Assembly: GCA_964511305.1 (NCBI GenBank)
Contig: CAZEEU010000001.1
Location: 127,214 to 191,213 of the forward strand
Direction of reading: 5' to 3'
Length of the DNA stretch: 64,000 nt
Source: an uncultured Gammaproteobacteria bacterium
Lineage (GTDB): Bacteria; Patescibacteriota; Microgenomatia; Levybacterales; GWA1-39-11
Shown: positions 1 to 42,157 of the stretch, one piece after another
Numbering within the stretch: the first letter of the stretch is position 1
Layout: every line of letters begins with the position of its first letter
Position numbers and translations under genes: made by a program
Notes under the pieces: model-generated
What the model was told of the DNA's origin: nothing
What the model saw: only the letters and a program-made list of their open reading frames with translations
The model's database searches: none

Positions 1-83
1 CCACACAAAAAAAGTCGGATTTCTTTTATGCAGCAAAAAAGCTAGAAATATTATAAAAATGATGTCCTGAATTTTTGGCATAT

Positions 84-1259
84 TTATCTAAGAAAGATTT
101 TAAGAATATTTTTTTTGTCTTTTTCAGTAAGTTCTGGATTGTTGCCAATATACAATCCCCTCTCATGTGCAATCTGAGCGTTCTCCATTTTGAAATTCTT
201 TTCCGCCGTATACTTTTTAAAAAATGGCTGCGCAGTAATATCGCCACCAACAATCGGACGTATCTCAATTTTACCATCACATATGCTTACTAGCTCGTCT
301 CTTAATTTTTGGCTTTTACAAATTATCGGAATTGCAAAATTTGAAAGTAAATCCATATGGTCATAATAAATTGGCAGGTAATAATCTTTTTGTTGATATA
401 TCTTAAGAGCAACTTCAAGAAAGTTCTTGTTTCTTTTTTTTATAATTTCTTCAAGAAATGACAGCTGCACATTTCCAAGAAATCCATTTATTTCAGTGGG
501 TCGTAAGTTGTAACCGAGATCATAAAATGTGTATCTTGAATAAAATGTAGAATTAACCTTATATTTATTCCTCATTTTAGTCTGTTTGGCTACTGAAAGA
601 TTCCTATCCCATCCATGAGCCCTAACAATTCGCAACTGGTGAGCTAAATCTCCATTATCAGTACAAATTGCACCTCCTTCGATTGTTGACATATGATGTC
701 CTACATAAAAAGAGTTTGTGCTCGCAAAACCATAATTTCCTAATTTCATACCTTTATAAACACTCCCCAGCGACTCACAGTTGTCCTCAAGAAGAATTAT
801 TTTTTCTTTTCTGCAAAAGTCATAAATCTTGTCGATGTCATCGCAAAAGCCTAAAGTATTGGTTAAAAAGAGGGCCTTAAGTTTATGTTTTTTTGTAGCT
901 TCAATGAATTTTGCAGAGGAGACATTTAATGTATTAAGTTCTATGTCAATTGGTATAGGCGTTAGTCCAAGCTCAATTATTGGCATTACATTGGTTGACC
1001 AAGTAAGTGCTGAAAAGGCGACGTTATCTCCTTTTCTTAACTTACCAAGATTAAGTAATGCTTGTATAAGTGCTAAGTTTGCAGAACTTCCACTATTAAC
1101 AAATACACAATATTTCCTCTCTTGGAAGTGAGCAAACTTTTTTTCAAATTTTTCACATTCTGCGCCAAAGCTTAATTGCTTGGCGCTTCCTACAAAACTC
1201 TGCAATGCTTTGATAGTTGCCGGTTCTTTATAAAAAGTAGACTTGACGAGCTTTATCAT
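84..1259 (-). CDS. DegT/DnrJ/EryC1/StrS-family PLP/PMP-dependent sugar-modifying enzyme; probable sugar 3-dehydratase (ColD/E1-like) rather than aminotransferase
   Basis: 391-aa ORF with the DegT-fold signature (…FVNSGSSANLAL…, …ILLEDNCESLGS…). At the position of the Schiff-base Lys the sequence reads 'SFYVGHHMSTIEGG'. The paralog at 15984..17144 has 'SFHAIKNMSTGDGG' there, so Lys is replaced by His, as in the PMP-dependent 3-dehydratases ColD and E1. Confidence 0.8.
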   Translation of the reverse strand: MIKLVKSTFYKEPATIKALQSFVGSAKQLSFGAECEKFEKKFAHFQERKYCVFVNSGSSANLALIQALLNLGKLRKGDNVAFSALTWSTNVMPIIELGLTPIPIDIELNTLNVSSAKFIEATKKHKLKALFLTNTLGFCDDIDKIYDFCRKEKIILLEDNCESLGSVYKGMKLGNYGFASTNSFYVGHHMSTIEGGAICTDNGDLAHQLRIVRAHGWDRNLSVAKQTKMRNKYKVNSTFYSRYTFYDLGYNLRPTEINGFLGNVQLSFLEEIIKKRNKNFLEVALKIYQQKDYYLPIYYDHMDLLSNFAIPIICKSQKLRDELVSICDGKIEIRPIVGGDITAQPFFKKYTAEKNFKMENAQIAHERGLYIGNNPELTEKDKKNILKIFLR

Positions 1260-3139
1260 GATTTCCGAATACGAACGTATGGGACAGTAACATAAGCCAA
1301 AAAGATTATGATCGAAATAATACTTATAGGCAACAGCATTTTTATATATTTTTGCGGCTCGTAATACAGTTTTGCTTTAGAGGAATCTGTTGGCAAATCA
1401 AAACTGTTAATTCCTTGGTAGTTGCTTGATTTTATAGCTTTACCATTAATATCTAGGGTCCAATATGGAGAATACGATTCTGAGAATAATAAAGTGCCGT
1501 TTTTACTATCAGCAAAATTTAACTCGTATTCTGTAGCAGTTATATTTTCTGACTTGACTTGTGAAATGCTGTTCAGGATGCTGAATCTATTTCGATATCC
1601 TGTATTTTCAAAAACGGCGATCTTACCAAAATTTTTAACCTTTTTAAGATATTTAATTTTATCTATCTTTTCAATGACATTTAAATAATTCTTCTGTGAA
1701 TATTTATGGTCATCTATAAATATTTCACCCTCACTATCAAAAGGTACAATTACATATTTTATAGAGTATAAATCGAGCTTACCATTCAGATTGGGCAATT
1801 CTTTCAGAATAGTTACTGGATCATTTTTAGAGAATAATTCCCCTCGACCAATTGCAGGACTCACTGTTGAGAAGTACCCATATCGTTGCCACTGGGGAAT
1901 CCATAATGTCCTAAATGACTCTTTCTGATCAATAATGAAATCTGAAAGCTGTTTGTATTCTTTTGGCACCTCTCTCATGCGTGGTATATTTACCTGTCCA
2001 TAAAAAATAAATCGATTCAAAAATATCCAATACATTACAAACAAAACCATAAGAATTTTAAGGCTAATAAATTTCAATTGCTTTTTTGAATGAAAATAAG
2101 AACTTATACAATTGATGCCAGAAGGGATTAATAATGAATAGGCAAAGGCAATAAGCATATAAAACTTTGTAGAATCGCGAAACGCACCAAAACCAGGAAT
2201 ACTATCGTATAAAAATTCATATACTTTTCCGAATGGCTCATTTGTTCCCTTAGCCAAAAATATGCCCACCAACGAAATCAACGTCAATACTATTATCTGA
2301 TTTCTTTCTTTTAGCTTTGCTTTCAATCCAAGCAGTGGAACGAAAGCAAGTATTGGAAGTAATAAAAATTCTGACTTTACAAAAGATACTTTCCCAAAAA
2401 TATTATCAGGCCAATTAGGATGAAGTAGAGATATAGAATTTTCAAGGTGTGCAAAGCTAAAAAAGCTAGCAGATCCAGTAACACCACTGCCTACACTCTT
2501 TTGCGCAAATAAAATAAGTGGCACTATCCAAAATAGGTGACTTAAAAATATAACTCCTATTGCAGTCAGCATCAACATGATTGTATCTTTAACTACAATT
2601 TTTCTTAAAAATATAAAAACAAAGAATAGCAGAAAAAGGCCAACTGCAAAGATACGTGGGTCAAATAGAGTGAGAAGAGACGAAACAAGTCCAAAAGTAA
2701 TCGATCTTCTCAGCGAATATTTTTCAATCGCATTTATAAATGTCAAAACCATAAAAGGAAGCAATGAATATGCAAAAGCTACGCCAAGTTGTCCTCCAAA
2801 AAATATTAAGAGAAAATACGTATTCGTTGAGAAAATGAGTCCAGCAATAATTGCTAGGTAGTTGTTGATAGAAAATATTTTTTTAAATAAATAGAAACCC
2901 CCGAGAAAAGAACTAATAGAGATAGGCAAAATCCATAATAAAATACTAGCCCAAAGCCATCCCATTCCAAGTTGTGAAATTGTTGCAGTAAGATTTAGAT
3001 AGCTTGTAATCCATAGAGTATTTATAGACTGAATTCCCAATCCGCTATTTAAAGATGAATCCCATGAAGATGGAATGCCAACAAATGAGGCTAGGCTGTC
3101 TTGCCAAAAGAATCTCCAGTCTCCTCTTATAATATCCAT
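1256..3139 (-). CDS. Polytopic membrane protein (GT-C-like) with a YfhO-type C-terminal extracytoplasmic domain and C-terminal TM anchor
   Basis: 627-aa ORF with many hydrophobic helices in the N-terminal half. The C-terminus reads '…SYSPYWTLDINGKAIKSSNYQGINSF…' followed by a hydrophobic anchor (LLPISIISIIIFLAYV), the same module seen in the YfhO-like proteins of this window. Its start codon abuts an in-frame TAA that separates it from the 104-aa ORF upstream. Confidence 0.75.
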   Translation of the reverse strand: MDIIRGDWRFFWQDSLASFVGIPSSWDSSLNSGLGIQSINTLWITSYLNLTATISQLGMGWLWASILLWILPISISSFLGGFYLFKKIFSINNYLAIIAGLIFSTNTYFLLIFFGGQLGVAFAYSLLPFMVLTFINAIEKYSLRRSITFGLVSSLLTLFDPRIFAVGLFLLFFVFIFLRKIVVKDTIMLMLTAIGVIFLSHLFWIVPLILFAQKSVGSGVTGSASFFSFAHLENSISLLHPNWPDNIFGKVSFVKSEFLLLPILAFVPLLGLKAKLKERNQIIVLTLISLVGIFLAKGTNEPFGKVYEFLYDSIPGFGAFRDSTKFYMLIAFAYSLLIPSGINCISSYFHSKKQLKFISLKILMVLFVMYWIFLNRFIFYGQVNIPRMREVPKEYKQLSDFIIDQKESFRTLWIPQWQRYGYFSTVSPAIGRGELFSKNDPVTILKELPNLNGKLDLYSIKYVIVPFDSEGEIFIDDHKYSQKNYLNVIEKIDKIKYLKKVKNFGKIAVFENTGYRNRFSILNSISQVKSENITATEYELNFADSKNGTLLFSESYSPYWTLDINGKAIKSSNYQGINSFDLPTDSSKAKLYYEPQKYIKMLLPISIISIIIFLAYVTVPYVRIRKS

Positions 3140-3454
3140 TTATTTGCTTTTAACCTCACGAAGGCATAACACAATGTATAGCACTGTAAGAAAGTATCCT
3201 AATATACTAACTTGCTCTGCATAATAAGTTTTTGAGAATGCAACAAAAAAATAATTAAGACCAAATGATATCAACCCGAAGAGCAGTATTTTCTCAGAAG
3301 AAGGTCTAAATAGAACAAGTGCGCTAATAACAAAGGAGAATAGAACTACCCCATCAAAAAAAGTACTAACAATATTTATATACGGCAATCGAATAAGGAA
3401 AGAAACAATGACTGCAATTAGAATAGATACTATGAATTTAACAACTGTTTTCAT
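3140..3454 (-). CDS. Small 4-TM membrane protein, possibly a GtrA-like polyprenyl-phosphate-sugar flippase component
   Basis: 104 aa with four hydrophobic segments and an 'SFGLNYFF' segment that loosely resembles the GtrA 'SFxxNxxxTF' region. It overlaps the upstream 1111-aa gene by 4 bp (ATGA), and the small-protein-within-GT-C-operon arrangement fits. Family assignment is weak. Confidence 0.5.
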   Translation of the reverse strand: MKTVVKFIVSILIAVIVSFLIRLPYINIVSTFFDGVVLFSFVISALVLFRPSSEKILLFGLISFGLNYFFVAFSKTYYAEQVSILGYFLTVLYIVLCLREVKSK

Positions 3455-9585: not shown

Positions 9586-10595
9586 TCTTTATATCCAACC
9601 AAGCTTTTTGCAAAAAGGTAATAGTAGTAGGTTAATCCGGGACTTCGTTTTATTTCACCTAGAAAAGCGCTATCCTTTATAACTCTTATTTTCTCTTGAA
9701 TTCTCTTTCTCTTGGCAAGAGTTGATTTCAGATTTACAACATTCCAATATATTGCCCTGTTGATGCTTAGGAAAAGGTCAAATCTACCTTTTGGAATAAA
9801 AGATAACGCTGCTGCTTCACACAATATTAAGTGCACTGGTAAGATTTTAATAAGTTCAACAGTCCCAAGGTTCTTTATATAAGAACATATTCTGTTTTTA
9901 AATGAATGAAATTGTATAAAGCCATTATTCATGGCGTTTGAAGTACCTCCAACTTTATGATGTATCACTGACTTCGGAGCATAAACAATTGAATATCCTA
10001 AAAGCCATACTCGATGACAAAAGTCGGTCTCTTCAAAATATGCAAAAAAGTCCTCATCAAATAACCCCACCCTATCGATAACTTCTTTTTTAATCATCAT
10101 GCATGCACCTTTTGCGGTATACAGATAATGAGTAGCGTCATATTTTTTCTTATCTTTTTGAAAATACCCGTAATGATAGAGAAACCCTGTACTTGTGTAA
10201 TATGCTCCAACTGAATCCAGTCTATCCGGATAATCCATGGAAAGAATTTTGCTCTGCACTACCCCTATCTTATCTTCTGCTTCAATTGCTTTAACAAGCT
10301 CAGTTACAAAATCTTTTGTGACTACCGTGTCATTGTTAAGCAACAATACATAATCCCCAGTAACCGCAGGCAGGCCCTTGTTATTACCACCAGAAAATCC
10401 TAAATTTTTCTTGCACTTTACTATTTTTATCTTTGGGAAATTCTCTTCAATATAACGTATTGAATCGTCATGGGAAGCATTATCAACAACTATCGTTTCG
10501 AGATTGGGATAGGTTACTTTCGACAATGATGGAAGACATTTTTTAAGATGAGAAAGTCCGTTCCAATTTACAATAATAATTGAGACTTTTTTCAT
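9582..10595 (-). CDS. Glycosyltransferase family 2 (rhamnosyltransferase/WbbL-like subfamily)
   Basis: 'VSIIIVNWNGLSHLKKCLPSL…IVVDNASHDDS', '…LLLNNDTVV…' and 'FDEDFFAYFEETDFCHRVWLLGY' are typical GT2 motifs (DxD region and C-terminal ED/DFC box). Confidence 0.9.
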   Translation of the reverse strand: MKKVSIIIVNWNGLSHLKKCLPSLSKVTYPNLETIVVDNASHDDSIRYIEENFPKIKIVKCKKNLGFSGGNNKGLPAVTGDYVLLLNNDTVVTKDFVTELVKAIEAEDKIGVVQSKILSMDYPDRLDSVGAYYTSTGFLYHYGYFQKDKKKYDATHYLYTAKGACMMIKKEVIDRVGLFDEDFFAYFEETDFCHRVWLLGYSIVYAPKSVIHHKVGGTSNAMNNGFIQFHSFKNRICSYIKNLGTVELIKILPVHLILCEAAALSFIPKGRFDLFLSINRAIYWNVVNLKSTLAKRKRIQEKIRVIKDSAFLGEIKRSPGLTYYYYLFAKSLVGYKE

Positions 10596-11311
10596 ATAGA
10601 TGCAGTCTTAACTGCCCGTATGTCAATTTCGGCAAACCCTTTATTTCTATAATCTCTTCTAACTAATGCGTCAATCAATCTATTCCTTGGTTCTTTTTTA
10701 CCTAATGCGTGTTTAAAAAAGTACAAAATTAAAATTGATAGTGTGGTATAAAAACCTGCATTATATTTTATGTCTTTTACAGTAAAACCAGACAGCTGTA
10801 GCAATGAGAGTAATTCTTTTTTTGAGTAATGTCTATGCCCAAAAAAGAATGCAGGGTCCAAAACATTAGAAAGCAAATTATTATTCATTGTATTTATAAA
10901 GAGTGTTCCATTTTTCTTCATAGAGCGATTGATATTTATTAAAGAGACTAATTCACTTCCTCTTGGTATATGCTCAATGACCATGAAATACAATACAACG
11001 TCAAATTCTTCTTTTTTAGGAAGAGCATCTACTATTGAATGTTTGTAGAATTTAAATTTAGGAAATTTTTTTGTTGCCGTTTTTAGTGGCGCACTTTCTA
11101 TATCTATTCCAGTGACATTGCACTTTTCTTTTATCATTAGTTCTTCCAATGGCCCACTCCAACAGCCGATATCTAACACTGCTTTATTAAGAATATAGGG
11201 ACGAATCCAGTTGAATAAAAAATAATGTCCTGGCACTAACACATTCTCTCCATCTCGAGAGGCAACATACTTCATTCTAGACTGCATATTATAATTAAAA
11301 CATTCTATCAA
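10592..11311 (-). CDS. Class I SAM-dependent methyltransferase
   Basis: 239 aa with motif I 'VLDIGCWSGPL' and '…DVVLYFMVIEHIP…'. It overlaps the upstream GT2 by 4 bp. Confidence 0.8.
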   Translation of the reverse strand: MIECFNYNMQSRMKYVASRDGENVLVPGHYFLFNWIRPYILNKAVLDIGCWSGPLEELMIKEKCNVTGIDIESAPLKTATKKFPKFKFYKHSIVDALPKKEEFDVVLYFMVIEHIPRGSELVSLININRSMKKNGTLFINTMNNNLLSNVLDPAFFFGHRHYSKKELLSLLQLSGFTVKDIKYNAGFYTTLSILILYFFKHALGKKEPRNRLIDALVRRDYRNKGFAEIDIRAVKTASI

Positions 11312-11358
11312 ACTACTCTATTGATAAAAAGGAGTTGTTTGTCTAAAATCAAGATCAT
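11312..11358. promoter_or_regulatory. Divergent intergenic region between the minus-strand methyltransferase and the plus-strand epimerase; presumed divergent promoters
   Basis: A 47-bp AT-rich spacer lies between two divergently oriented start codons and contains a 'TAAAAT' -10-like hexamer. This is positional inference only. Confidence 0.3.
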
Positions 11359-12318
11359 ATGAAAGTACTAATTACCGGAGGAAATGGATTTATTGGAAGT
11401 TCGGTCGCACACAAACTTTTAAAACGAGGCTATGAAATAGGGGTACTTGATAATGATTCAAGTTTTATAAATAAGCCTAAATACCACAAAGCAGCTCTTG
11501 AGCACAGAAAAAAACTTTTTAAAAATAAAATTTCGTATAGTCTTAAAGGTGACATCCGCAACAAATCGCATGTAAAAAGAGCCTTCGATGAATTTCAGCC
11601 AAATATAGTAGTGCATTTGGCAGCAATACCAATGGCACGACCACTGCCAGAATTTGAAGAAGAGATGATTCCAATAACCCTTTATGGCACGCTAAATGTA
11701 CTTGAAGAATTTGAAAAATGTGAGTCCGCAACTAAGATTGTCTACACATCATCAAGTATGACCTATGGACATTTCACAAAGAGTCCACAGCCTGAGGATG
11801 TAATGCTTAATCCAATAAATAGTTACGGAGCCTGCAAAGCTGCTGGTGAATATTTTGTAAAACTCTCAAAGAAAGAATGGGTAATCGTCAGACCAACCTC
11901 TGTATACGGATATGCTGATGCCGCCAACAGAGTAACACAACTACTTCTGGACGCTGCACTCAATAATAAATCCGCTTGGGTTGTAAGAGGAGAAACACTC
12001 GACTTTTCCTACATCGAAGACGTTGCAGAAGGATTTGCACTTGCTGTTGAGCGCCCAAGTGCTGTATACCAAACATTTAATATTTCAAAGGGAGAACCAA
12101 GATCTGCATCAGACTTTGCTGAGATACTTAAAAAACACTTTCCTAAATTCACATATGACGTGAAAGAACCAACTGTTCAGCAAGTTTTTCGTGGAGCACA
12201 AGATATAACAAAAGCAAAGGACTTCTTGAATTTTTCTCCGAAGTTCAACATTGAGGATGGAATTGAAGATATTCTACGCCTTGTTGAAGAGTACAACTGG
12301 AAGAAAGACGCATACTAA
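11359..12318 (+). CDS. NAD-dependent sugar epimerase/dehydratase (extended SDR)
   Basis: N-terminal Rossmann 'MKVLITGGNGFIGSSVAHKLL' and the catalytic 'YGACKAAGE' (YxxxK) motif. 319 aa. Confidence 0.9.
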   Translation: MKVLITGGNGFIGSSVAHKLLKRGYEIGVLDNDSSFINKPKYHKAALEHRKKLFKNKISYSLKGDIRNKSHVKRAFDEFQPNIVVHLAAIPMARPLPEFEEEMIPITLYGTLNVLEEFEKCESATKIVYTSSSMTYGHFTKSPQPEDVMLNPINSYGACKAAGEYFVKLSKKEWVIVRPTSVYGYADAANRVTQLLLDAALNNKSAWVVRGETLDFSYIEDVAEGFALAVERPSAVYQTFNISKGEPRSASDFAEILKKHFPKFTYDVKEPTVQQVFRGAQDITKAKDFLNFSPKFNIEDGIEDILRLVEEYNWKKDAY

Positions 12319-13808
12319 TGGTTTATTATTTAGGGGTACTCATACCTCTTCTTGGTTTTATACTTCAGGCCTACCCACGACTCATAAATAAATCCTTTGG
12401 AGTGGATGTGTGGACACGCCTCCTTGAGATTGACGCAATACGAAATGCCAACCATAGAGTTCCAGATAAAGTTGAAAAGGGATTTATTATAGAGGGACAT
12501 TTCGATTATCCTCCGGTTTTTCCTTTTATTTTTTCTTTTATCTCAAGAAAGGCTATTATTAGATTTCAAGGATACATTTCCCCTCTTATTGATTCATTTC
12601 AGACCTTTTTCGTTTTTGTTTTTTGTTATCAAATTACAAATTCACTAGCAATGTCATTGCTTGCTCAATTAATTTATATACTCACACCAATGATTGCCGT
12701 TGAGAATAGCTATCTCACTCCTCGCTCTCTCGGATACCTAACATTTACCCTAGCTTTTTATCCTCTTATCTTAAATCAACTTAATCCTTCAAACCTCACA
12801 TTATTAAGCGGCGTAATTTTCGCAGTTTTATTATTTCTCACACACAGATTCGCCTTGCAGTCTTACGTAATATTATGCCTACTCATGGGCGCACTAACGG
12901 GTTCATTGCATTTTTTTGCTATTCCCGTTGTGTCATTTATTCTCGCTGTTATTATTACCAAGGGGTACTATCTGAGGGTACTTAAAGGTCATCTATCTAA
13001 CATTTACTTCTGGGTAATAAATTATAAGTATCGCTTTGCTCATCAAATCTATGGACTCCGCGAAAGTAAAAAAAATGATTGGGTAGCGGTCGTATACAAG
13101 CTTCTTTCTGAATTCTCACCAATATTCCTTCTTTTTACAAATGTATGGGCCGCCTCTGCATTCGTTTTTATATATCTATATATTGGAACTAGCATATTCC
13201 AAGACTCTCCGATTTTAGTTTACTTTGCATTCTGGGTAGCCTTTTGCTATATCCTTGGAGCTATTATCTTAAGATTTAAAGTACTAATACCAATAGGTGA
13301 AGGTCAACGGTATCTTGAAATGGCAACGCTACCTAGTGCAATTCTCACATCATATCTTGCCTTTTACTTTTACGGCATTTACGGCACTATAGTAATTTTC
13401 CTTGGCGGATTTATACTTGCCTCCAACTTGGCCTTAATACTTTACATCCAAATAAAGGGGGTAATTAACGACAAAAATAGATCTCTTACTCCAGAACTTG
13501 AAAAAATGTATAGCTTTATTAACAGGTTGCCAGAAAAAAGACCTAGAATAATGTGCATACCTCATCAAATAACAACGATGACAGTTTTTCATACAAAGGC
13601 GGACGTATTAGTAAATGCAGACAATCCAGGTCTTATGAAACTTTCAGACTTTTACCCAATACTTAACGTAGACCTACAAACTCTTCAGAAAAAATATCAG
13701 CTAGACTATATACTTTTAAGAGAGAACTTTGCAAAGGAAAAGGATTTACCAATAAGCAAAACACAAACAATCTTTACCTCTGGGGACATTCAACTCCTTA
13801 AATTCTAA
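12318..13808 (+). CDS. Polytopic membrane protein of an uncharacterised family (paralog of 13805..15274)
   Basis: 496 aa with many TM helices. It shares with its convergent neighbour the motifs 'YPRL(I/V)N..FGVD(V/I)WT', 'YDYPP', 'TPRSLGY', 'GEGQRYLE' and 'CIPHQITT'. Confidence 0.75.
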   Translation: MVYYLGVLIPLLGFILQAYPRLINKSFGVDVWTRLLEIDAIRNANHRVPDKVEKGFIIEGHFDYPPVFPFIFSFISRKAIIRFQGYISPLIDSFQTFFVFVFCYQITNSLAMSLLAQLIYILTPMIAVENSYLTPRSLGYLTFTLAFYPLILNQLNPSNLTLLSGVIFAVLLFLTHRFALQSYVILCLLMGALTGSLHFFAIPVVSFILAVIITKGYYLRVLKGHLSNIYFWVINYKYRFAHQIYGLRESKKNDWVAVVYKLLSEFSPIFLLFTNVWAASAFVFIYLYIGTSIFQDSPILVYFAFWVAFCYILGAIILRFKVLIPIGEGQRYLEMATLPSAILTSYLAFYFYGIYGTIVIFLGGFILASNLALILYIQIKGVINDKNRSLTPELEKMYSFINRLPEKRPRIMCIPHQITTMTVFHTKADVLVNADNPGLMKLSDFYPILNVDLQTLQKKYQLDYILLRENFAKEKDLPISKTQTIFTSGDIQLLKF

Positions 13809-15282: not shown

Positions 15283-15984
15283 TTACCGAGAGCTTTTACT
15301 CCAGGCGAAAGTGAGATATGTTTCAATTGCTTTAAAACCACATGATGCGTATGCTCGAATTGCAGAAATATTCTGAATTTGAGTTTCAATCTTGGCATTA
15401 TCTCCTCCACTGTCCTTAATGTACGATAAGGCGGATTTGACGAGCATTTTACCAATCCCATTACCTTGAAATTCTTTACCAACAGCAATAAGCGGTATAT
15501 GCTCTCCCTTAATTGTCACATATCCAGCAATCATGCCGTTCTGTTCAAAAACTAAAACTCGGTCGGCAACATCTGAGGATACAGAATTTTCAACCCAGCG
15601 TTTATATATCTCTTGGGCTTTATTATTGCTAATAATTGGATCATTAAAAAATCTTGTTGAATCAAATGCATGTCCACTTATTTGTTTTAGCCGTTCTATA
15701 TCTTCTATTATTGCTTCTCTAACATTTTTTGACTCATATGTTTCAAGACTACTATTTTCAAAATTAATCGCACCATCTACAAGCAAAAAGCCATTTTTTT
15801 CTAAGGCATGCGCGATGTCTAACCTTTTTGAAGAAAATCTATAGGTGGCATATTCAATGCTACCTTCTATTAATGCAGCAACTAATCCCACAACGTCATT
15901 AGGAGAATTAATCTCAGTTATTTTAGCCGTAGAAAATCCAAGGATTTCAGTATCAAATGGGTCGTTATGCCAAGAAAATTGCAT
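15283..15984 (-). CDS. GNAT-family N-acetyltransferase, WecD-like (amino-sugar N-acyltransferase)
   Basis: 233 aa with the GNAT acetyl-CoA motif '…IAVGKEFQGNGIGKMLV…'. Its position immediately downstream of a sugar aminotransferase, with a 1-bp overlap, supports the role. Confidence 0.75.
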   Translation of the reverse strand: MQFSWHNDPFDTEILGFSTAKITEINSPNDVVGLVAALIEGSIEYATYRFSSKRLDIAHALEKNGFLLVDGAINFENSSLETYESKNVREAIIEDIERLKQISGHAFDSTRFFNDPIISNNKAQEIYKRWVENSVSSDVADRVLVFEQNGMIAGYVTIKGEHIPLIAVGKEFQGNGIGKMLVKSALSYIKDSGGDNAKIETQIQNISAIRAYASCGFKAIETYLTFAWSKSSR

Positions 15985-17144
15985 TATTTGCTCTTGAAGT
16001 TTGTAACAATTTCAATAAGTGTATCCGCAACGTAATTTACTTCTTCGATTGTCATTTTGGGATACAAAGGAAGTGTTAGCATTTTTTTAAATACTTTTTG
16101 GGCTACTGGGAAGTCTGACGGTTTGACTTTTAAGTCTTTTTTATAGAAACTTAGTTCATAAAGTGGCATATAGTATACATTTGCCCCTATATTGCGCTTT
16201 TTCATTTCCTCAACAATTTGGTCCCTAGTAATTGTAAGTTTTGAAATGTCAATTTGAACCGTATAGAGATTTCTGGCATGTCTATTCGATGTATCGTTAT
16301 GAGGTACTCGAATTTCTGCTATTTTTGAAAATTTCTCATCATAGATAGATGCGTATTTTTGTCTAACAGCGATAAATTTATCAAGTTTTTTGAGCTGTTG
16401 AATTCCTAACGCTGCTTGGATGTCTGTCATGTTAAATTTATATCCTGGCAAAGAAACGTCATATCGCCAACTCCCAACTGCTGAATGTCTTTTCCATGCA
16501 TCTTTACTCATTCCATGAAGTCTTAAAAGACAGAGTTTGTCGTATAAATTCTTGTTGTTCGTCGTAACCATACCACCATCCCCAGTTGACATATTTTTTA
16601 TCGCATGAAATGAGAAGACCGTCGCGTCACCAATGTTACCTATTCTTGTCCCTTTATATTCTGTGCCTACCGCAGTTGCTGCATCTTCGATAATAAGCAG
16701 CTTGTATTTTTTGGCTAAACTTTTTACTTTAGCCATATCAACTGCTTGTCCTCCATAATGCATTATCATCAAAGCCTTTGTCTTTTTTGTGATTTTTTCT
16801 TCAATCTTTGAAACATCAATATTTAACGAATCCTCCATAACGTCGACAAAAATAGGTACTCCTCCAAGCTGGACAATTGGATTTGCTGTGGCAGCAAAAG
16901 TAAGAATAGTTGTTATAACTTCATCACCTTTTGAGATACCTGATGCAAGAAGTGATAGGAATAGACCTGCGGTACACGAGGACATTGCCACTGCATACTT
17001 ACTACCAACATACTTTGCAAAATCTTCTTCAAATTGATGTGTTCTCGGGCCTAATGTTACCCAGCCCGAATCCAAAGCATCGAGAACTTCATCTTTTTCC
17101 TCTTTTCCAAAAAGTGGTTGTGCAAACGGTATAAATTTATCCAT
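15984..17144 (-). CDS. DegT/DnrJ/EryC1/StrS-family sugar aminotransferase (ArnB/WecE/PglE-like)
   Basis: 386 aa with '…DALDSGWVTLGPRTHQFEEDFAKYVGSKYAVAMSSCTAGL…' and the canonical Lys motif 'VFSFHAIKNMSTGDGG'. Confidence 0.9.
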   Translation of the reverse strand: MDKFIPFAQPLFGKEEKDEVLDALDSGWVTLGPRTHQFEEDFAKYVGSKYAVAMSSCTAGLFLSLLASGISKGDEVITTILTFAATANPIVQLGGVPIFVDVMEDSLNIDVSKIEEKITKKTKALMIMHYGGQAVDMAKVKSLAKKYKLLIIEDAATAVGTEYKGTRIGNIGDATVFSFHAIKNMSTGDGGMVTTNNKNLYDKLCLLRLHGMSKDAWKRHSAVGSWRYDVSLPGYKFNMTDIQAALGIQQLKKLDKFIAVRQKYASIYDEKFSKIAEIRVPHNDTSNRHARNLYTVQIDISKLTITRDQIVEEMKKRNIGANVYYMPLYELSFYKKDLKVKPSDFPVAQKVFKKMLTLPLYPKMTIEEVNYVADTLIEIVTNFKSK

Positions 17145-17173: not shown

Positions 17174-18298
17174 TTACTTGCCAGGTCTAATTTGACCATT
17201 TATTAGCTTGAAGCTCTCCCTACCAGCTTCTTCCCAACTAAATTTCTTTGACCACAATATTGCTTCTTTACACATTTTTTTGTACGTCAAATCATCTTCC
17301 AGTAGAGATAATGTTCCGGAGTACAAGCTTTCGATATTTTGTTCAACCAACCTTCCCGTCTTGCCATCAACAATAGAATCTACAAGTCCTGCAACTCTAT
17401 ATCCAATTGCCGGAGTTCCAACCGAGTTTGCCTCAATAACATTAAGTCCCCACCCTTCTTTAATGGATGGGTGAATGAGTAATTTGGACTTAGATAATAT
17501 ACTGAATTTTTGATCTTCAGTTACAAATCCCACAATCGTACAGTACTGACCAAGCTTCCTTTTCTTGATCATATTCACAATATGATCTTGATACTGTTCT
17601 GACTCACTTTTACCAATTATGGTCAGATGAACATTCTTATGTTTTTTGGAGATTCTATCTACAACTTCGATTGCATCTTCGATACCTTTGTCCTTTGATA
17701 TTCTTGCCAAAAAAACGAGGTTATGCGGAATTTTCTTTGCAACTAATGATCTTTTCCATGGTGTAAATCCATGATGAATGACATGTATCTTTTTTGAAGA
17801 AAGCCCTACTTTTAAAAGATCGTCTCGTGCTGACTCAGAGCCAGTTATAAAAGATTGTTTTTTGTATTTTCTAATAATAAAAGGTTCCAAAATAAATCCA
17901 ATTGCTGCAAGAGGGAAAAAAAGATTCTCAAACCAAATTTTACCGGCAACCTCATTAATAAGACCAATTACTTTAGGTTTGCCTCTATAAAAAATCGAGA
18001 AATATGGGAAGAAGTGAAAACAATCAATAATAACATCGTAATGTTTTTTGCTTCGCAAGAAGAAAATGAAAAATTGTATAAAACTTGTAAAGTGACTACC
18101 TCGACGTATATATAGAATTCCGTCCTTATTCTCCTCTCCCTTGCTCCCTTTGTAGCTTGAGGCACACCATGTAATTTGTGCCCCCTTGCTCTTCCAATAT
18201 GAAGCGTGGTGAAATAGTGATATCTCGGCGCCACCAGCTAACGGATGTTGTGGATCTCGCCAGTTGAGGATTAGTATGTTCATTTTCCTTGTAGCCAA
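17174..18298 (-). CDS. Glycosyltransferase family 4 (GT-B, retaining)
   Basis: 374 aa with the EX7E-region motif 'PSIKEGWGLNVIEANSVGTPAIG…GKTG'. Confidence 0.85.
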   Translation of the reverse strand: MATRKMNILILNWRDPQHPLAGGAEISLFHHASYWKSKGAQITWCASSYKGSKGEENKDGILYIRRGSHFTSFIQFFIFFLRSKKHYDVIIDCFHFFPYFSIFYRGKPKVIGLINEVAGKIWFENLFFPLAAIGFILEPFIIRKYKKQSFITGSESARDDLLKVGLSSKKIHVIHHGFTPWKRSLVAKKIPHNLVFLARISKDKGIEDAIEVVDRISKKHKNVHLTIIGKSESEQYQDHIVNMIKKRKLGQYCTIVGFVTEDQKFSILSKSKLLIHPSIKEGWGLNVIEANSVGTPAIGYRVAGLVDSIVDGKTGRLVEQNIESLYSGTLSLLEDDLTYKKMCKEAILWSKKFSWEEAGRESFKLINGQIRPGK

Positions 18299-19056
18299 TT
18301 TTTTTGATTACTTTTTCTATAGTATTTAATAATTCTAACTCTATAAAATACAGCGAGAGTATCCCACAGCATATGAAGAACGACCGTCCATAGAGTTGTT
18401 GAGGTTATTGTATTTGCCCCTTTAAATCGAAGCTTAATGGGAGCCTCATAGATTCTTTTGTAGCCAAGAGCATAGGCAAGTGCAAAAATTTCGACATCAA
18501 ATGCAAAAGTCTTGACTAAAAGTCTTGGAAAAACATCCCGCACTACCTTTGCTTTGTAAAACTTTATGCCTGTTTGGGTATCTCTTAATTTAAATCCGAA
18601 TAAAATACGGGTAAAAGTCCGGTATCCCCAGGAAAGAATTTTTCTGTAAAATGGGTAATCAACCTTAGAAACAGGGTGCATCTTGCTTCCAACAATAATA
18701 TCAGCATCGTACCAAATCATATGATTTAAGAGCATGGAGACACCAGTTGGATCAATATCTAACCCCGCATCCATAAAGCCTATTATGTCTCCGCTTGCCT
18801 TCAGAGCTCCATAACGCACAGCATATCCTTTCCCTTGGTTGAATTTATATTGATAAACTTTAACCCGGGACGAGGCATGTCTTTTGATTCGTTCATATGT
18901 ATCATCAAGCATGCCATCTACTACAACTATTATTTCAAATGAATAGTCTAGTTCTTCCATTACAGATACCAGCTTTTTGACATTTTGAACAATTGTCTTT
19001 TCTTGTTTGTAAGCAGGAATAATGAGGGAAATTGTTTGAAGTTTTCTTTTAGGCAT
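18280..19056 (-). CDS. GT2 polyprenyl-phosphate sugar synthase-like (DPM1/GtrB/CsbB-type)
   Basis: 'ISLIIPAYKQEKTI…IIVVVDGMLDDT…YKFNQGKGYAVRYGALKASGDIIGFMDAGLDIDP'. It is a short (258-aa) soluble-type GT2. Confidence 0.8.
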   Translation of the reverse strand: MPKRKLQTISLIIPAYKQEKTIVQNVKKLVSVMEELDYSFEIIVVVDGMLDDTYERIKRHASSRVKVYQYKFNQGKGYAVRYGALKASGDIIGFMDAGLDIDPTGVSMLLNHMIWYDADIIVGSKMHPVSKVDYPFYRKILSWGYRTFTRILFGFKLRDTQTGIKFYKAKVVRDVFPRLLVKTFAFDVEIFALAYALGYKRIYEAPIKLRFKGANTITSTTLWTVVLHMLWDTLAVFYRVRIIKYYRKSNQKNWLQGK

Positions 19057-19117
19057 TGGCTTTTTTGATATTTTAAGTTAGTGCTTGTGATTAAGCAATG
19101 GCTCAGTTAAATATAAG

Positions 19118-20404
19118 CTACTTTTGCGTTTTGAGTAAGTAGAGTGAAATACAAAGAAGTCCACCTGTAACTATAATTGAGGAGTAAATGATTTGTCCAA
19201 AATCTGCATGGAATAAATAAATTAAGACTGATTGCAACACTGTTCCTACTAAGAGTATCCAGGCAAAATTTGTCTTTTTTATAGAGAGGAAATAATATCC
19301 AAATAACGAAAGAATCGAGTATAGAGTTATAAAAACACCAAATAGTGGAAGGTACTGACTTATTGCAAGGTACTCCTTATTTTTTAGGAAGAATAATATT
19401 GCAAAATTAGGAAATAAAGCATAAAAGCCAGTAATTGCCAAACATGCTGCACCAACAATCAAAATCGAAAGATATAGTACACCTTTGTAATTCTTTTTAG
19501 ATGCATATCTATTTATCAAAATAGGGAACATAACAGTACTTATGGGAGCGCTTATATAGAAAATTACACGACCAACCAGGGAGAGCCCCGCATATTGACC
19601 TGTTTGGTAGGCGCTGAACAAATGTTTTACCAACAAAATATCATTTGAAATAAAGGCATTTAAGCAAAATATTACAACAGCTGATGGTATACCAAATGAT
19701 ATAAGCTCTTTATAAGAAATGCTTGGTATATTGGCCGATTTGTAAAATATTACATTTCTTAAATAGTAAATCCCAAATATCAACAAAACTAGGCTGGATA
19801 CTACGTATCCCGATATAGCCCCGTACAACCCCCACCCCATAATTACCAGAATGAAAGCAGATCCAACTTTTACAAAAGCCGCAACAGTATTTGAAAAGGA
19901 TAAATACCTAAATGCAAGATTTGCTTGGGCAAAAGAGTTATTGAGGGTTGTTGCGTAAGAAATAAGAACACAAATAATTGCAATGAAAAATAACAGCGGG
20001 TTTTGAATGTTAAAGAATTCCTCTGCTTGTCTTGAAAAAATAAAGAACAATACTAAGAGCAAAATTCCTGAGATGGCAAGTGGCTTGAAAAGTTTTATGT
20101 AGAAAGCATGTAGATGACTCGTATTATTATTTGCAAAATAGTCACCTGCGGCACTAACTACAGTTGGAGTTACAGCCCCTGCAGGTATGGCAAGAAGTGT
20201 TATTAGGGAGACTATGCTTGTAAGAAGTCCATACTCCTCTACCATCAGGTTCCTACTCATTAGTAGGTTGAAAAGAAAATTAAAGAAATTTGCCAACAGA
20301 CCACCAGAAAAAAGGAAAAAGGATCCTGTAAAAAGAGGGTTTTTTAGGGCGTTTTTAATGTGCTTTTGCATATAACTTTTCGTAGGCACTAACCGTACCT
20401 TCAA
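19118..20404 (-). CDS. Wzx/MOP-superfamily oligosaccharide flippase-like polysaccharide biosynthesis protein
   Basis: 428 aa, about 12 hydrophobic helices and no soluble domain, within a GT cluster. The 5' end overlaps the upstream GT4 by ~50 bp, so the true start may be the internal Met at ~20371. Confidence 0.7.
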   Translation of the reverse strand: MKVRLVPTKSYMQKHIKNALKNPLFTGSFFLFSGGLLANFFNFLFNLLMSRNLMVEEYGLLTSIVSLITLLAIPAGAVTPTVVSAAGDYFANNNTSHLHAFYIKLFKPLAISGILLLVLFFIFSRQAEEFFNIQNPLLFFIAIICVLISYATTLNNSFAQANLAFRYLSFSNTVAAFVKVGSAFILVIMGWGLYGAISGYVVSSLVLLIFGIYYLRNVIFYKSANIPSISYKELISFGIPSAVVIFCLNAFISNDILLVKHLFSAYQTGQYAGLSLVGRVIFYISAPISTVMFPILINRYASKKNYKGVLYLSILIVGAACLAITGFYALFPNFAILFFLKNKEYLAISQYLPLFGVFITLYSILSLFGYYFLSIKKTNFAWILLVGTVLQSVLIYLFHADFGQIIYSSIIVTGGLLCISLYLLKTQK

Positions 20405-21419
20405 TCATTTTCTTAATAGAAAATGATTTTGATTGCTCGAGTGCAGCTTCTGAATATTTTTCTCTCAAGGAGACATCTGAAGAAATGGTTTTCATTTTTA
20501 GTGCAATGTCATGATAGTCGTTTTGGTCTACGTAAATGCCAGCGCTCCCAGCAACCTCAGGTAAGCTACCACCATGTGAAACAATAACAGGTGCCCCGCA
20601 ACTCATTCCTTCAAGAACAGGCAGTCCAAAACCTTCATCTATTGAAGGCATGCATACTGCAAGTGCCATGTTATAAAGCAAGACCAAATCATCTTCCGGT
20701 ACAAAACCAGGCTTTATAAATAAATCAGAATTAGTTTCACTCACAACCCACGACCTATCGTTATTCCAAGGGTTTGAAGCATCAAAATCGGACACCAATG
20801 CTTTTCCTACCATAACAATAGGAATCTGAACCTCTTTTATTGCATCAACAAGTCTAGGCAAATTTTTGTTCCAGGTTACATCCCCTACATACAAAAAGAA
20901 TTTTTCAGGCAAATTATATTTCTTGGCGATAGTAAGTCGTTCTGATGCTGATATTTTTTCCTTTCGGAAGCTATCTCCAACTCCTAAAAGAACGCTCTCA
21001 ACCTGATGTCCCTTAACCCCAACAAATTTTATAATATTTTTCTTTGAAGCTTCAGAATCAGCGAGAATAAGATCTGATTGTTTTAAAATCCTTCTATTAA
21101 CTTGCCATGAGATATTGCCTTTAATACCAGCAGGAAAATGTTCAGGGTATGATATTGGAATAAGATCGTGCACAGTAATTACTGTTTTTTTCTTTTTGAA
21201 AATAGGAAATGTTACAAAAAAGGGATCAAGGTACGGATAGTGCACTATATCTGCCTCTTTGCTGTCCTCCTGTATATTAGAACTGAAGATATAGTCATTC
21301 TTTCTGTCATATTTCTCAAGATTATCTTTTAGAAGGCCTATATACATTCCTACACCACGAACTTTATGCTGACTTTTTGTCTGAGAACTAATCGGGGAAA
21401 CATCTACAGCAATTTTCAT
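20355..21419 (-). CDS. Glycosyltransferase family 4
   Basis: 354 aa with 'PSIDEGFGLPVLEGMSCGAPVIVSHGGSLPEV', the EX7E motif. Confidence 0.85.
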   Translation of the reverse strand: MKIAVDVSPISSQTKSQHKVRGVGMYIGLLKDNLEKYDRKNDYIFSSNIQEDSKEADIVHYPYLDPFFVTFPIFKKKKTVITVHDLIPISYPEHFPAGIKGNISWQVNRRILKQSDLILADSEASKKNIIKFVGVKGHQVESVLLGVGDSFRKEKISASERLTIAKKYNLPEKFFLYVGDVTWNKNLPRLVDAIKEVQIPIVMVGKALVSDFDASNPWNNDRSWVVSETNSDLFIKPGFVPEDDLVLLYNMALAVCMPSIDEGFGLPVLEGMSCGAPVIVSHGGSLPEVAGSAGIYVDQNDYHDIALKMKTISSDVSLREKYSEAALEQSKSFSIKKMIEGTVSAYEKLYAKAH

Positions 21420-21452
21420 ATAAATCTAAAAATAAAAACTTAAAACAAAAAA

Positions 21453-21818
21453 CTATATTACTTTATTTTTCCAATACTTAAGTAAACCGATCAATTGTCT
21501 ACTTACCTCTATAGTTTTATCATGAACTGATGTGTAAGTATTTTCGTCAATATAATTGAGGTCCTTTGAAAGTAAAAGATGATACTTTGTTTCTTCAAGA
21601 GATCCATTTGCGATATAAAGAAATTCGATAAATTCTTTTCTGTGACCTCTCGAATTTCCCTCAATTATATTTGTTGTAACCGATGAGGCTGATCTTCTTA
21701 TTTGACTTACCAAACCAAACCTCTCATCGATAGGAAACATGGAGGAAACTTTGTATACATCCAGGACGAGTTCATGTGCAACTTTAAATATTGGGAGTGT
21801 TGTAAATTTATCAACCAT
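21453..21818 (-). CDS. Four-helix-bundle protein (23S rRNA intervening-sequence protein family)
   Basis: 121 aa: '…FKVAHELVLDVYKVSSMFPIDERFGLVSQIRRSASSVTTNIIEG…EFIEFLYIANGSLEETKYHLLLSKDL…'. I recognise this as the typical sequence of the family, in a free-standing copy. Confidence 0.7.
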   Translation of the reverse strand: MVDKFTTLPIFKVAHELVLDVYKVSSMFPIDERFGLVSQIRRSASSVTTNIIEGNSRGHRKEFIEFLYIANGSLEETKYHLLLSKDLNYIDENTYTSVHDKTIEVSRQLIGLLKYWKNKVI

Positions 21819-21836
21819 GCGTGGACTTTTTAGTTT

Positions 21837-22820
21837 TTAGTTATCTGTTTTATTGCTCTTGCTGTGCCAAGCGTATGCACTCCTCACAATCGTTGAAAGA
21901 TCTGAATATCGAGGCTCAAAATGTAATTCATTTGTAATGCGACTTACATCAGCAACCAGAGTGTCAGCGTCTCCCGGTCTTCTCTCCTCATATCTAACTT
22001 TCAACTCAAGGCCGGTTACATCCTGAATTGTTTGTGCGATTTCTTTATTGCTTTTGCCCCTTCCCGTTCCAACATTGTACGTATACCCTCCCGGGTTCTC
22101 TATGATTTTTTGAAGCGCTAAGACATGGGCTTCAACAAGATCTAATACGTGGATATAATCTCTTACACAGGTACCGTCTGGTGTGCTGTAATCATTTCCA
22201 TATATAACAAACTCTTTTCCTTCGCGCGCAGACTTAAGCGCAATAGGAATTATATGCGTTTCGGGCATATGTTCTTCTCCAAGACTCCCATCCATCATAG
22301 CTCCACAAGCATTAAAGTACCGAAGAACAGCATAGTTAAGCCCGTATATCGTTTTATGCCAAAAAAGCATCCGCTCAACCATCAATTTGCTCTCACCATA
22401 TGGGTTTGTAGGAACCTTTCGATCATCCTCTTGTATAGGTACCCGCTCTGGGTTACCGTAAACTCCTGCTGTTGATGAGAAAATGATATTCTTTACGCCA
22501 ATTTCATGTAGGCTATCGAGGAACATTTGTGTTTGGTGAGTATTTTGTTCAAAATAAAGTCCAGGATTTTCCATGGATTCCTTCATTGATATGTAGGCTG
22601 CAAAATGAATTACAGCTTCAAATTTATTTTCGGATGAAATTTTAGAAAGTAATTCTCGATCTCCTACCTTACCTCGGTAAAACGGTACATTCTCAGGAAC
22701 TACATGTTCATTTCCGCGCTCCAAGCTATCAAGAACAATTGGTTCGTATCCTTTTTCTAAAAGAGCACGAACCATAAAACTGCCTATATATCCTGCTCCA
22801 CCTGTAACTAATATTTTCAT
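21837..22820 (-). CDS. galE: UDP-glucose 4-epimerase
   Basis: 327 aa with 'MKILVTGGAGYIGS', '…YGESKLMVERML…' (YxxxK) and a GalE-like length. Confidence 0.9.
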   Translation of the reverse strand: MKILVTGGAGYIGSFMVRALLEKGYEPIVLDSLERGNEHVVPENVPFYRGKVGDRELLSKISSENKFEAVIHFAAYISMKESMENPGLYFEQNTHQTQMFLDSLHEIGVKNIIFSSTAGVYGNPERVPIQEDDRKVPTNPYGESKLMVERMLFWHKTIYGLNYAVLRYFNACGAMMDGSLGEEHMPETHIIPIALKSAREGKEFVIYGNDYSTPDGTCVRDYIHVLDLVEAHVLALQKIIENPGGYTYNVGTGRGKSNKEIAQTIQDVTGLELKVRYEERRPGDADTLVADVSRITNELHFEPRYSDLSTIVRSAYAWHSKSNKTDN

Positions 22821-41162: not shown

Positions 41163-41408
41163 ATGAAAAATCCTGATCCACTTAGTTTTGCTCTTATCAT
41201 TCTTATTTCGGTTATACAGTTAACGATTAAAGGTTTTGCATTATGGAGAGCTTCGCAAGGCAAGCAAAGGAACTGGTTCCTTGTTCTTTTCGTACTTCTT
41301 CCAATCAACGAGTTTGGGATTGTAGAGATACTGTTCCTCTTTAAATTTGCCAAGAAAAAACTCACGCTTGCTGAAATCCAATCCTGGTTGAAGTTTGGAA
41401 AAAACTAA
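41163..41408 (+). CDS. Small 2-TM membrane protein (hypothetical)
   Basis: 81 aa with two clear hydrophobic helices (LSFALIILISVIQLTIKGFALW and WFLVLFVLLPINEFGIVEILFLF) and a Lys-rich amphipathic tail. It converges on the GT2 at 41405 with a 4-bp overlap. The competing antisense ORF 41241..41567 has no membrane or domain features. Confidence 0.45.
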   Translation: MKNPDPLSFALIILISVIQLTIKGFALWRASQGKQRNWFLVLFVLLPINEFGIVEILFLFKFAKKKLTLAEIQSWLKFGKN

Positions 41409-42157
41409 ACCTTCCTCTGTTGAAGCTCCCAAAGCTTTGCGTAAGTAATAAATATCGAAAATGCTTGGTACATACCCTCTATTAATCCGTATACGCCATT
41501 TTTGTATCCTTTGTTTTTTACATAAGAATTGATAAATTCTGTTCCCATGACTCTTAAAAAGCGCCATGGAGCAAGTTGTGGGTGCTTTGATTCAAGACGT
41601 AGCTTTGCTTCAAAAAGAGACCATTCGTTTGTTTTTCTTACCATTTGAGATAAATTTCTGTGCGTAAAGTGTTGTATAGGAGACTCAATTTGATCCATGG
41701 TCCCTTTAACTTTAGGTGTTTCATGAACAACACCTGACCACTCTATAAATTTTTTCCTATAAAATAACCGCTGAACGCGATCTCTAAAATTCCAATCTTT
41801 TCCATAGTAAAAAGTTTTTCGGTGAATAAAGTAGCCAGCTATTTCACTCGTTGGATCATATTGCTTAATTTTTAGAAGTGCTTCTTTTTTAAAAGCATCA
41901 GTTAGCCTTTCGTCTGAATCTAAAAAAAGTACCCATTCCGATGTGGCATGATACATCCCAAAATTCCTTTGATCTGAAAAGTCCTTAAATGCATGCCTAA
42001 CACTCTTAACTTTGTATGAGGTGCATATTTTTTCTGTATCGTGACTATTGCTGCCATCAATCACAATTACCTCCCCAAATCCACGACAAGAGGCTATGGC
42101 ATCTGGCAGAACATCTTCATCATTTCTTGAAATTACTACAACTGTTATATTATTCAT
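41405..42157 (-). CDS. Glycosyltransferase family 2 (WaaE/KdtX-like subfamily)
   Basis: 'ITVVVISRNDEDVLPDAIASC…VIVIDGSNSHDT…WVLFLDSDERLTD'. Confidence 0.85.
   Translation of the reverse strand: MNNITVVVISRNDEDVLPDAIASCRGFGEVIVIDGSNSHDTEKICTSYKVKSVRHAFKDFSDQRNFGMYHATSEWVLFLDSDERLTDAFKKEALLKIKQYDPTSEIAGYFIHRKTFYYGKDWNFRDRVQRLFYRKKFIEWSGVVHETPKVKGTMDQIESPIQHFTHRNLSQMVRKTNEWSLFEAKLRLESKHPQLAPWRFLRVMGTEFINSYVKNKGYKNGVYGLIEGMYQAFSIFITYAKLWELQQRKV

Follow-up and report, generated by a model that had tools for sequence, protein, structure and literature searches.

The sugar 3-dehydratases E1, ColD and SpnQ are separated from aminotransferases by one key feature, the substitution of His for the Schiff-base Lys, and the catalytic acid/base role belongs to the substituting His (PMC8987622). 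In E1 and SpnQ four cysteines make up a [2Fe-2S] motif and a reductase is required, whereas ColD is cluster-free and is recycled by glutamate (PMC8987622). ColD (WbdK) is the GDP-4-keto-6-deoxy-D-mannose 3-dehydratase of Escherichia coli O55 (2gms, 3b8x, 2r0t and 3gr9 in the PDB), and E1 (AscC/DdhC/RfbH) is the CDP-6-deoxy-L-threo-D-glycero-4-hexulose 3-dehydrase of Yersinia and Salmonella (3bcx and 3bb8). The GDP-6-deoxy-4-keto-D-lyxo-heptose 3-dehydratases of Campylobacter jejuni HS:5/HS:11 are also of the ColD type and carry out a C3 deoxygenation of a GDP-4-keto-6-deoxy sugar that depends on pyridoxal 5'-phosphate (PLP) and glutamate; in that pathway a separate epimerase and 4-reductase act after the C3-dehydratase (PMC10440746). 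Here we describe the gene at 84..1259 of a 64,000-nucleotide stretch of contig CAZEEU010000001.1 (the window), which an earlier note had read as a DegT-family member with His at the place of the PLP-binding Lys and as a candidate 3-dehydratase of ColD or E1 type. Our comparisons indicate that its product, referred to below as the target, is probably an active 3-dehydratase dependent on pyridoxamine 5'-phosphate (PMP), with His in place of the Schiff-base Lys.

The reading frame is present as described, with 391 residues, and matches PF01041 (DegT/DnrJ/EryC1/StrS) over residues 17-387. Its score of 198.5 bits and that of the second DegT enzyme of the window, encoded at 15984..17144 and used here as comparator (421.2 bits), both exceed the cutoff of 19.8. 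Plus-strand readings of the two stretches gave frames filled with stops, so that both genes lie on the minus strand. In a four-way alignment, for which we used the full-length ColD from the E. coli O55:H7 genome, His188 of the target, His188 of ColD, His220 of E1 and Lys183 of the comparator share one column. The substitution claimed earlier is thereby borne out, as is the canonical Lys of the comparator, and the His-His pair of the target falls exactly at the Lys-equivalent position rather than away from it. In HMMER alignments the residue mutated in the ColD structures 3b8x (H188N), 2r0t (H188K) and 3gr9 (S187N/H188K) faces the first His of the target, the codons for His188 and His189 being located at 698..696 and 695..693. 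All 46 homologues of an alignment carry G187-H188-H189, the [GA]HH motif is found in all 25 of the related genomic loci, and the longer pattern FSF[YF]V[GA]HH is present in every locus recovered by a GTDB genome scan. Given this invariance among homologues and the conservation of the motif across the loci, the replacement of Lys by His does not appear to be due to chance.

Sequence, profile and fold comparison agree in placing the target among the PMP-dependent 3-dehydratases, in line with the earlier proposal, and the published definition of the class fits it (PMC8987622). Among PDB sequences, E. coli ColD (2gms) was the best match, at E 8.8e-57, ahead of E1 (3bcx and 3bb8, about 1e-43) and 9wvy, a putative 3-dehydratase of nucleoside diphosphate (NDP)-4-keto-6-deoxyglucose, with ordinary sugar aminotransferases ranking below these three. 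A profile built from the 46 homologues gave 244 bits with ColD and 181 bits with E1. When an AlphaFold model of the target (predicted local distance difference test score 84, predicted template-modelling (TM) score 0.85) was compared with known structures using Foldseek, the 12 best matches were all ColD chains, with TM scores of about 0.80 (0.79-0.81); aminotransferases among the matches listed gave 0.73-0.80. The target is 35.8% identical to ColD over 374 residues and 32.3% identical to E1, while ColD and E1 are 32% identical to each other in a multiple alignment. Of the 113 positions that are invariant among the homologues, all of which the target keeps, ColD shares 58, E1 47 and the comparator aminotransferase 35. 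S56-G57-S58, W87, D159, E162, S183, N251 and R253 are clade-invariant and each is identical in the aligned ColD, where we take these residues to form the surroundings of the cofactor site. The two proteins have the same fold and similar lengths (388 residues for ColD), both have the catalytic His at residue 188, and they share the segments EDNCES, RAHGW-RNL, GYN-RP and E-x-RPIV. They differ immediately before this His, where the target has Gly and ColD has Ser187, and in their hosts, that of the target being Patescibacteria-like.

Of the two types named in the earlier note, the ColD part stands and the E1 part does not. The target lacks all four [2Fe-2S] cysteines of E1: the columns of C251, C253, C257 and C261 hold R, L, K and M in the target and R/L/x/x across the family, as in ColD, and the E1 segment RDCYCAPGCDNTCKKRF aligns with a Cys-free stretch beginning RAHGWDRNL in the target and its relatives. 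The only cysteines of the target are at positions 35, 51, 139, 149, 161, 199, 314 and 327, and E1 is about 45 residues longer. Since the Fe-S cysteines are absent, chemistry of the ColD type is predicted, in which PMP is regenerated by glutamate with no need for E3, and we conclude from the sequence that the mechanism is of the ColD type and not of the E1 type. The names attached to homologues by JGI and NCBI ('CDP-6-deoxy-D-xylo-4-hexulose-3-dehydrase', 'CDP-4-keto-6-deoxy-D-glucose-3-dehydrase' or generic DegT aminotransferase) would in part make the target a CDP-4-keto-6-deoxyglucose 3-dehydrase that works with a [2Fe-2S] cluster and E3. RfbH (NF011936, 226.6 bits) is the best NCBIfam model for the target and E1 is the second-best PDB family; E1 is also a His-type DegT enzyme, the first half-reaction of which (PMP ketimine formation and expulsion of the C3 hydroxyl) is the class-mechanism counterpart of the one proposed here. 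The RfbH score nevertheless lies far under the equivalog cutoff of 423 bits, the cluster cysteines are missing from the whole clade, no E3-like ferredoxin/flavin reductase, RfbF or RfbG was present among the Pfam/NCBIfam matches of the scanned open reading frames (ORFs) of the window, and ColD is ahead of E1 by sequence, profile and fold. The missing cysteine motif by itself largely refutes an E1-type enzyme, which we regard as very improbable.

By sequence, the target, with about 36% identity to ColD, is not a ColD orthologue and falls into a third clade. The clade as a whole is 32-37% identical to ColD and 29-33% to E1, with a mutual identity of about 70% over many lineages of metagenome-assembled genomes (MAGs). 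A homologue search gave E < 1e-10 for 7824 of 8000 scored candidates, and the best 120 were all 66-98% identical to the target. Where source names were available they were those of Patescibacteria, Levybacteria and similar MAGs. The GTDB scan yielded 23 loci with titles including Levybacteria, Roizmanbacteria, Saccharimonadales, 'Patescibacteria group' and third-party annotation MAGs named 'uncultured Gammaproteobacteria', together with one Chitinophaga and one Halpernia at 50-54% identity. We place the target on these grounds in a large, uncharacterised, mainly Patescibacteria branch of a known enzyme type. The C. jejuni enzymes are, in contrast to this clade, true ColD orthologues, and a heptose substrate is not indicated for the target.

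ORFs were called and clustered in 25 related loci, and three further close relatives (72% identity) brought the number to 28. A short-chain dehydrogenase/reductase (SDR) of the GDP-L-fucose-synthase family, similar to Fcl and ColC, was adjacent to the ColD-like gene or within about 3 kb of it in 14 of the 25, and directly 3' of it in two of the three added relatives (16/28 in total). On the model for GDP-L-fucose synthase these SDRs reach 220-410 bits, under its 500-bit cutoff; their identity is 31-52% with E. coli Fcl and 26-41% with ColC of E. coli O55, and ColC and Fcl share 39%. True homologues of Gmd, with 52-66% identity to the E. coli protein, occur in the clusters of L022, L027 and L028, and in L022, a Patescibacteria MAG, the order is Gmd, a protein of a family that we term c9, the ColD-like gene and the Fcl-like gene. 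In L028 a GT11 glycosyltransferase gene directly follows the ColD-like gene, and a member of the same GT11 cluster is found in L024. In these features the relatives resemble the E. coli O55 locus, in which ColC adjoins ColD and gmd, manC, manB and a GT11 transferase lie in the same cluster. A neighbouring Lys-type DegT protein in L027 is most similar to GDP-perosamine synthase. Taken together, the Fcl-like SDR, Gmd, GT11 and perosamine-synthase-like genes of the relatives point to GDP-4-keto-6-deoxy-D-mannose as the likeliest substrate for the clade; a colitose-like GDP-3,6-dideoxyhexose would be the product. For the target itself, we favour with moderate confidence the full statement that it is a ColD-like PMP-dependent 3-dehydratase acting on GDP-4-keto-6-deoxy-D-mannose.

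Two of the related loci have features of their own. L027 (Chitinophaga sp. SYP-B3965, 9986..12977 and 19158..20327) brings together the ColD-like gene, a 220-residue ORF, the perosamine-synthase-like Lys-type DegT gene (247 bits to 3bn1) and Gmd, and its cluster has no Fcl-like SDR; it could encode a natural route to a sugar of the GDP-3-deoxyperosamine type (4-amino-3,4,6-trideoxy). L024 carries a second His-type DegT gene (15823..17076, minus strand) that is E1-like and 55% identical to E1, with PAHQ instead of PAHH and three of the four Fe-S cysteines kept, so that, judged by similarity, this locus holds homologues of both kinds of 3-dehydratase.

The steps proposed for the target are those of the class mechanism (PMC8987622), transferred to this protein. 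PMP would form a ketimine with the C4 keto group of the NDP-4-keto-6-deoxyhexose, and His188, at the position of the Schiff-base Lys, would take the C4' proton of PMP as the C3 hydroxyl is expelled. Hydrolysis of the resulting sugar enamine would give the NDP-4-keto-3,6-dideoxyhexose and ammonia, and L-glutamate would return PLP to PMP; neither an iron-sulfur cluster nor an E3-type reductase should be required. An SDR of the GDP-fucose-synthase/ColC type would then reduce, and possibly epimerise, the product to a colitose-like GDP-3,6-dideoxyhexose, which the surrounding glycosyltransferases may build into a surface glycan.

Several observations weigh against this assignment. The identity to ColD is low compared with the 62-67% that separates the characterised C. 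jejuni C3-dehydratases from ColD (PMC10440746), a PDB search found no solved, characterised member of the clade, and a targeted literature search on this enzyme class or on colitose in Patescibacteria returned nothing relevant. Residues 187-193 (the active-site loop) and 216-252 are of low confidence in the cofactor-free monomer model. Codon 182 (window 714..716) specifies Asn here and Ser in L002, a conspecific contig from ENA, whereas 42 of the 46 clade members, ColD (F182) and the comparator aminotransferase (F177) have Phe at this position; this is a lineage-specific polar replacement of a conserved hydrophobic residue, six before His188. Among the relatives, L009 and L010 have a different SDR, of 340 residues, after the ColD-like gene, L008 has CDP-glucose-pathway-like genes near its copy, and several loci are orphans without a partner gene. 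Finally, unlike the ColD locus, this one has no ColC or Gmd nearby: no 4,6-dehydratase, sugar-1-phosphate nucleotidyltransferase or Fcl/ColC-like SDR was present in the 64-kb window, in 10 kb to its left or in about 6 kb to its right, and the neighbours that the earlier note had suggested seeking were thus not found here. Since the partner genes are not in or near the window, we infer the sugar made by this organism, and its pathway, from the relatives. The window also encodes an aminotransferase/GNAT pair (15283..17144) that likewise has no local 4,6-dehydratase, so precursor genes evidently lie elsewhere in the genome and their local absence is only weak evidence against the assignment. We infer that Gmd, ManC and a reductase are present elsewhere in this genome.

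Some of these points would also suit the same ColD-type C3 deoxygenation acting on a 4-keto-6-deoxyhexose linked to UDP, dTDP or CDP, such as the 4-keto intermediate of the PseC-like aminotransferase, to give a non-GDP 3,6-dideoxy sugar or a 3,4,6-trideoxy-4-amino sugar. Gmd, ManC and Fcl-like genes were not found in this genome region, and the Lys-type 4-aminotransferase and GNAT share that lack of a local precursor gene; the clade is equidistant from ColD and E1 within the ranges given above; L009 and L010 have their different SDR; and L008 carries genes similar to glucose-1-phosphate cytidylyltransferase and CDP-glucose 4,6-dehydratase about 5 kb from its copy. On the other hand, the target is 49-71% identical to the relatives that have Fcl-like SDR clusters (62-71% for Patescibacteria/MAG loci, 49% for L028), among which three have Gmd, two GT11 and one the perosamine-synthase-like gene, and it retains every clade-invariant residue. 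In addition, the aminotransferase of the window is PseC/ArnB-like (385 bits on the PseC model, cutoff 423.5) and stands 15 kb away in another gene block. We therefore consider a non-GDP substrate rather unlikely and retain GDP-4-keto-6-deoxy-D-mannose as the preferred one.

The comparison with L002 bears on whether the gene is functional in this strain. Over 11,259 nucleotides the window and L002 differ at 31 (99.7% identical), and all the differences are in the last 3 kb (window 1..3139, L002 8121..11259), with 19 in the target gene (1.6%) and 11 in the adjoining gene for a GT-C-type membrane protein; the preceding 8 kb are identical. The GT-C gene therefore seems to contain a boundary due to recombination or strain variation. 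Within the target gene, 12 of the differences are synonymous and 7 are non-synonymous, a ratio consistent with purifying selection. The position in a strain-variable segment, the polar residue at 182, the missing partner genes and the observation that SpnQ transaminates without its reductase (PMC8987622) might each be expected if the target were not a dehydratase, but a transaminase only, an enzyme of different PLP/PMP chemistry or, in this strain, a decaying copy without activity. However, the reading frame is unbroken, with translational coupling inside an operon, none of the 113 clade-invariant residues is lost, synonymous differences outnumber non-synonymous ones, and the clade is very large, with its high mutual identity spread over many MAG lineages. 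Moreover, ColD and E1 had no transaminase activity under comparable conditions (PMC8987622). The decayed aminotransferase that the earlier note had considered is hence not what we find, and we judge any non-dehydratase role to be improbable.

If the target is a 3-dehydratase as proposed, its product may have a different fate in this organism. The clade could be a third, uncharacterised His-type lineage of 3-dehydratases, with its deoxy sugar widespread in the surface glycans of Patescibacteria. As the region that we searched yielded no Fcl/ColC-like 4-reductase, the 4-keto-3,6-dideoxy product of this organism may stay unreduced and could instead be aminated and N-acetylated by the 15283..17144 pair to a 4-acetamido-3,4,6-trideoxyhexose; this combination is speculative and we attach a low probability to it. 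Such a route would apply a forosamine-like pathway logic to a cell-surface glycan. In forosamine formation for spinosyn, the His-type SpnQ (TDP-4-keto-2,6-dideoxy-D-glucose 3-dehydrase) passes its 4-keto product to a 4-aminotransferase in the same way. SpnQ differs from the target in its [2Fe-2S] motif, its use of general ferredoxin/flavodoxin reductases, its dTDP substrate and its place in secondary metabolism. The pair itself also needs an NDP-4-keto-6-deoxy sugar, and no gene of the window supplies one.

Patescibacteria, or the candidate phyla radiation (CPR), are ultra-small, largely uncultured episymbionts with tiny genomes. A colitose-like 3,6-dideoxyhexose pathway would, if the assignment is right, be common among them, and CPR surface glycans plausibly mediate attachment to the host; a targeted literature search found no papers on CPR surface glycans. 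The term 'immunodominant', which the earlier note had applied to the sugar, derives for 3,6-dideoxy sugars from enterobacterial O-antigens. For annotation, the data suggest that homologues now labelled as E1-type CDP-sugar dehydrases or generic aminotransferases are of the ColD type and probably GDP-dependent. The clade may also offer compact, Fe-S-free 3-dehydratases for the enzymatic synthesis of dideoxy sugars. The gain for enzymology is incremental, as the chemistry and the His-for-Lys signature are textbook knowledge and homologues are already labelled as 3-dehydrases in databases.

The coordinates of the target, its neighbours and the other features of the window are collected in Table 1. 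The stop of the upstream GT-C gene overlaps the target start by 4 nucleotides (ATGA), a further ORF begins 2 nucleotides after the target stop, and no terminator-like site was found between the target and the following gene. These three features embed the target gene in an operon, and it is predicted to be translationally coupled within this glycan-assembly unit. The small ORF after the target encodes two or three likely membrane helices, ends at the start of the next gene and is uncalled in public contigs. We considered whether the 228 nucleotides after the target hold the remnant of a deleted reductase, and none was found, the stretch being this small hydrophobic ORF. The next gene, c9, was likewise rejected as the missing reductase, since it is a divergent GT-A glycosyltransferase, although its match to Glycos_transf_2 is marginal. 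The c9 family (about 200-330 residues) is tightly linked to the ColD-like gene in five loci (L002, L009, L019, L022 and L026), and in L026 it stands between the ColD-like gene and the Fcl-like SDR; it is a candidate for a dedicated transferase of the dideoxy sugar.

Table 1. Features of the window and of the adjoining part of contig L002.
Feature	Coordinates	Strand	Extent	Remarks
Small hydrophobic ORF (start)	1..81	minus	74 residues, complete in L002 11179..11403	ATG 2 nt after target stop
Target DegT-fold gene	84..1259	minus	391 residues; ATG start, stop at 86..84	Predicted PMP-dependent nucleotide-sugar 3-dehydratase, ColD mechanistic type
Region RAHGWDRNL...FYSRY of target	489..623	minus	About residues 213-257	Equivalent of E1 [2Fe-2S] segment; Cys-free, ColD-like
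Active-site segment SFYVGHHMSTIEGG of target	713..672	minus	Residues 183-196	Motif position in translation
GT-C-type membrane glycosyltransferase, weakly AftD-like	1256..3139	minus	627 residues	Upstream operon gene; PF11847 27.2 bits, cutoff 26
SDR	11359..12318	plus	319 residues	YxxxK present; 'SSSMTYG' replaces the 4,6-dehydratase T-D-E dyad
GNAT N-acetyltransferase, WecD-like	15283..15984	minus		Pairs with aminotransferase; PRK10975 101.5 bits, below cutoff 219
Comparator DegT enzyme	15984..17144	minus		SFHAIKNMSTGDGG with canonical Lys183; PseC/ArnB-like sugar 4-aminotransferase
GalE (UDP-glucose 4-epimerase)	21837..22820	minus		TIGR01179 386.7 bits, cutoff 262.3; best PDB matches all GalE
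Wzx-like flippases	19118-20404; 48010-49539			
PMT_2 matches	22838-24454; 26815-28089; 29585-31261; 31258-32883; 53536-55170; 59165-60874; 62491-63999			
YfhO matches	37743-40007; 42154-44472; 56845-59181			
PTPS_related matches	44488-46176; 50178-51872; 55215-56864			
Proteins without Pfam match (many)	e.g. 3451-6786; 7519-9585; 25171-26814; 28070-29584; 32861-34849; 51879-53534		400-1111 residues	
c9, divergent GT-A glycosyltransferase	L002 11404..12318		304 residues	Just left of window; PF00535 24.2 bits, E 3.5e-5

The window lies within a supercluster for glycan assembly that spans at least about 78 kb and is transcribed mostly in one direction. It contains many GT2 and GT4 glycosyltransferases, two Wzx-like flippases, methyltransferases, GalE and the PseC-like aminotransferase with its WecD-like GNAT, and paralogous membrane proteins of the GT-C type (PMT_2, YfhO, PTPS_related and AftD-like) are unusually numerous. 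L002 extends the window by 10 kb to the left, where the small ORF, c9, a GT4 fragment, a 513-residue protein, a GT4 protein, a WcaF-like acetyltransferase, a GT2 protein, a 1061-residue protein and a PMT are encoded; to the right, three more glycosyltransferase genes precede the end of the cluster, which is reached at housekeeping genes about 4 kb past the window. When metagenome contigs were searched for an exact match to DNA at the end of L002, none was found; a protein-based scan for a leftward extension returned only relatives at 70% identity or less, and a DNA search of a plasmid collection with window 1-8000 also gave no match. No tRNA genes were found in the window.

Two ORFs of the window were examined as the missing 4,6-dehydratase and neither was accepted. 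The ORF at 21837..22820 is GalE, which rules it out, and the plus-strand SDR lacks the T-D-E dyad and has no specific family match. The latter, the one SDR of the window without an assignment, could be an epimerase or a 4-ketoreductase, not of the ColC/Fcl kind; in L009 and L010 the SDR located after the ColD-like gene shares just 28% identity with it. With a 496-residue protein without Pfam match it forms the unit 11359..13808, one of few plus-strand units in the mostly minus-strand cluster, the other being 55215..60874.

In L006, L049 and L051, relatives at 71-72% identity, the ColD-like/Fcl-like pair is preceded by a block that is syntenic with GalE, GT4, Wzx, GT2 and GT4 of the window (17174..22820). 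In the window this block is followed by the PseC-like aminotransferase and GNAT instead, and the ColD-like gene, 16 kb further along, has no Fcl-like partner, which points to a cassette rearrangement. A gene for a 23S rRNA intervening-sequence protein (21453..21818, minus strand; PF05635, 122 bits), a bAvd-like four-helix bundle, has an odd place between GalE and GT4. Elsewhere in the supercluster, a GT2 ORF of 250 residues (41241..42157, minus strand) matches only about the first 135 of 168 profile positions and overlaps a 108-residue ORF in another frame, so that it may be a frameshifted or split glycosyltransferase.

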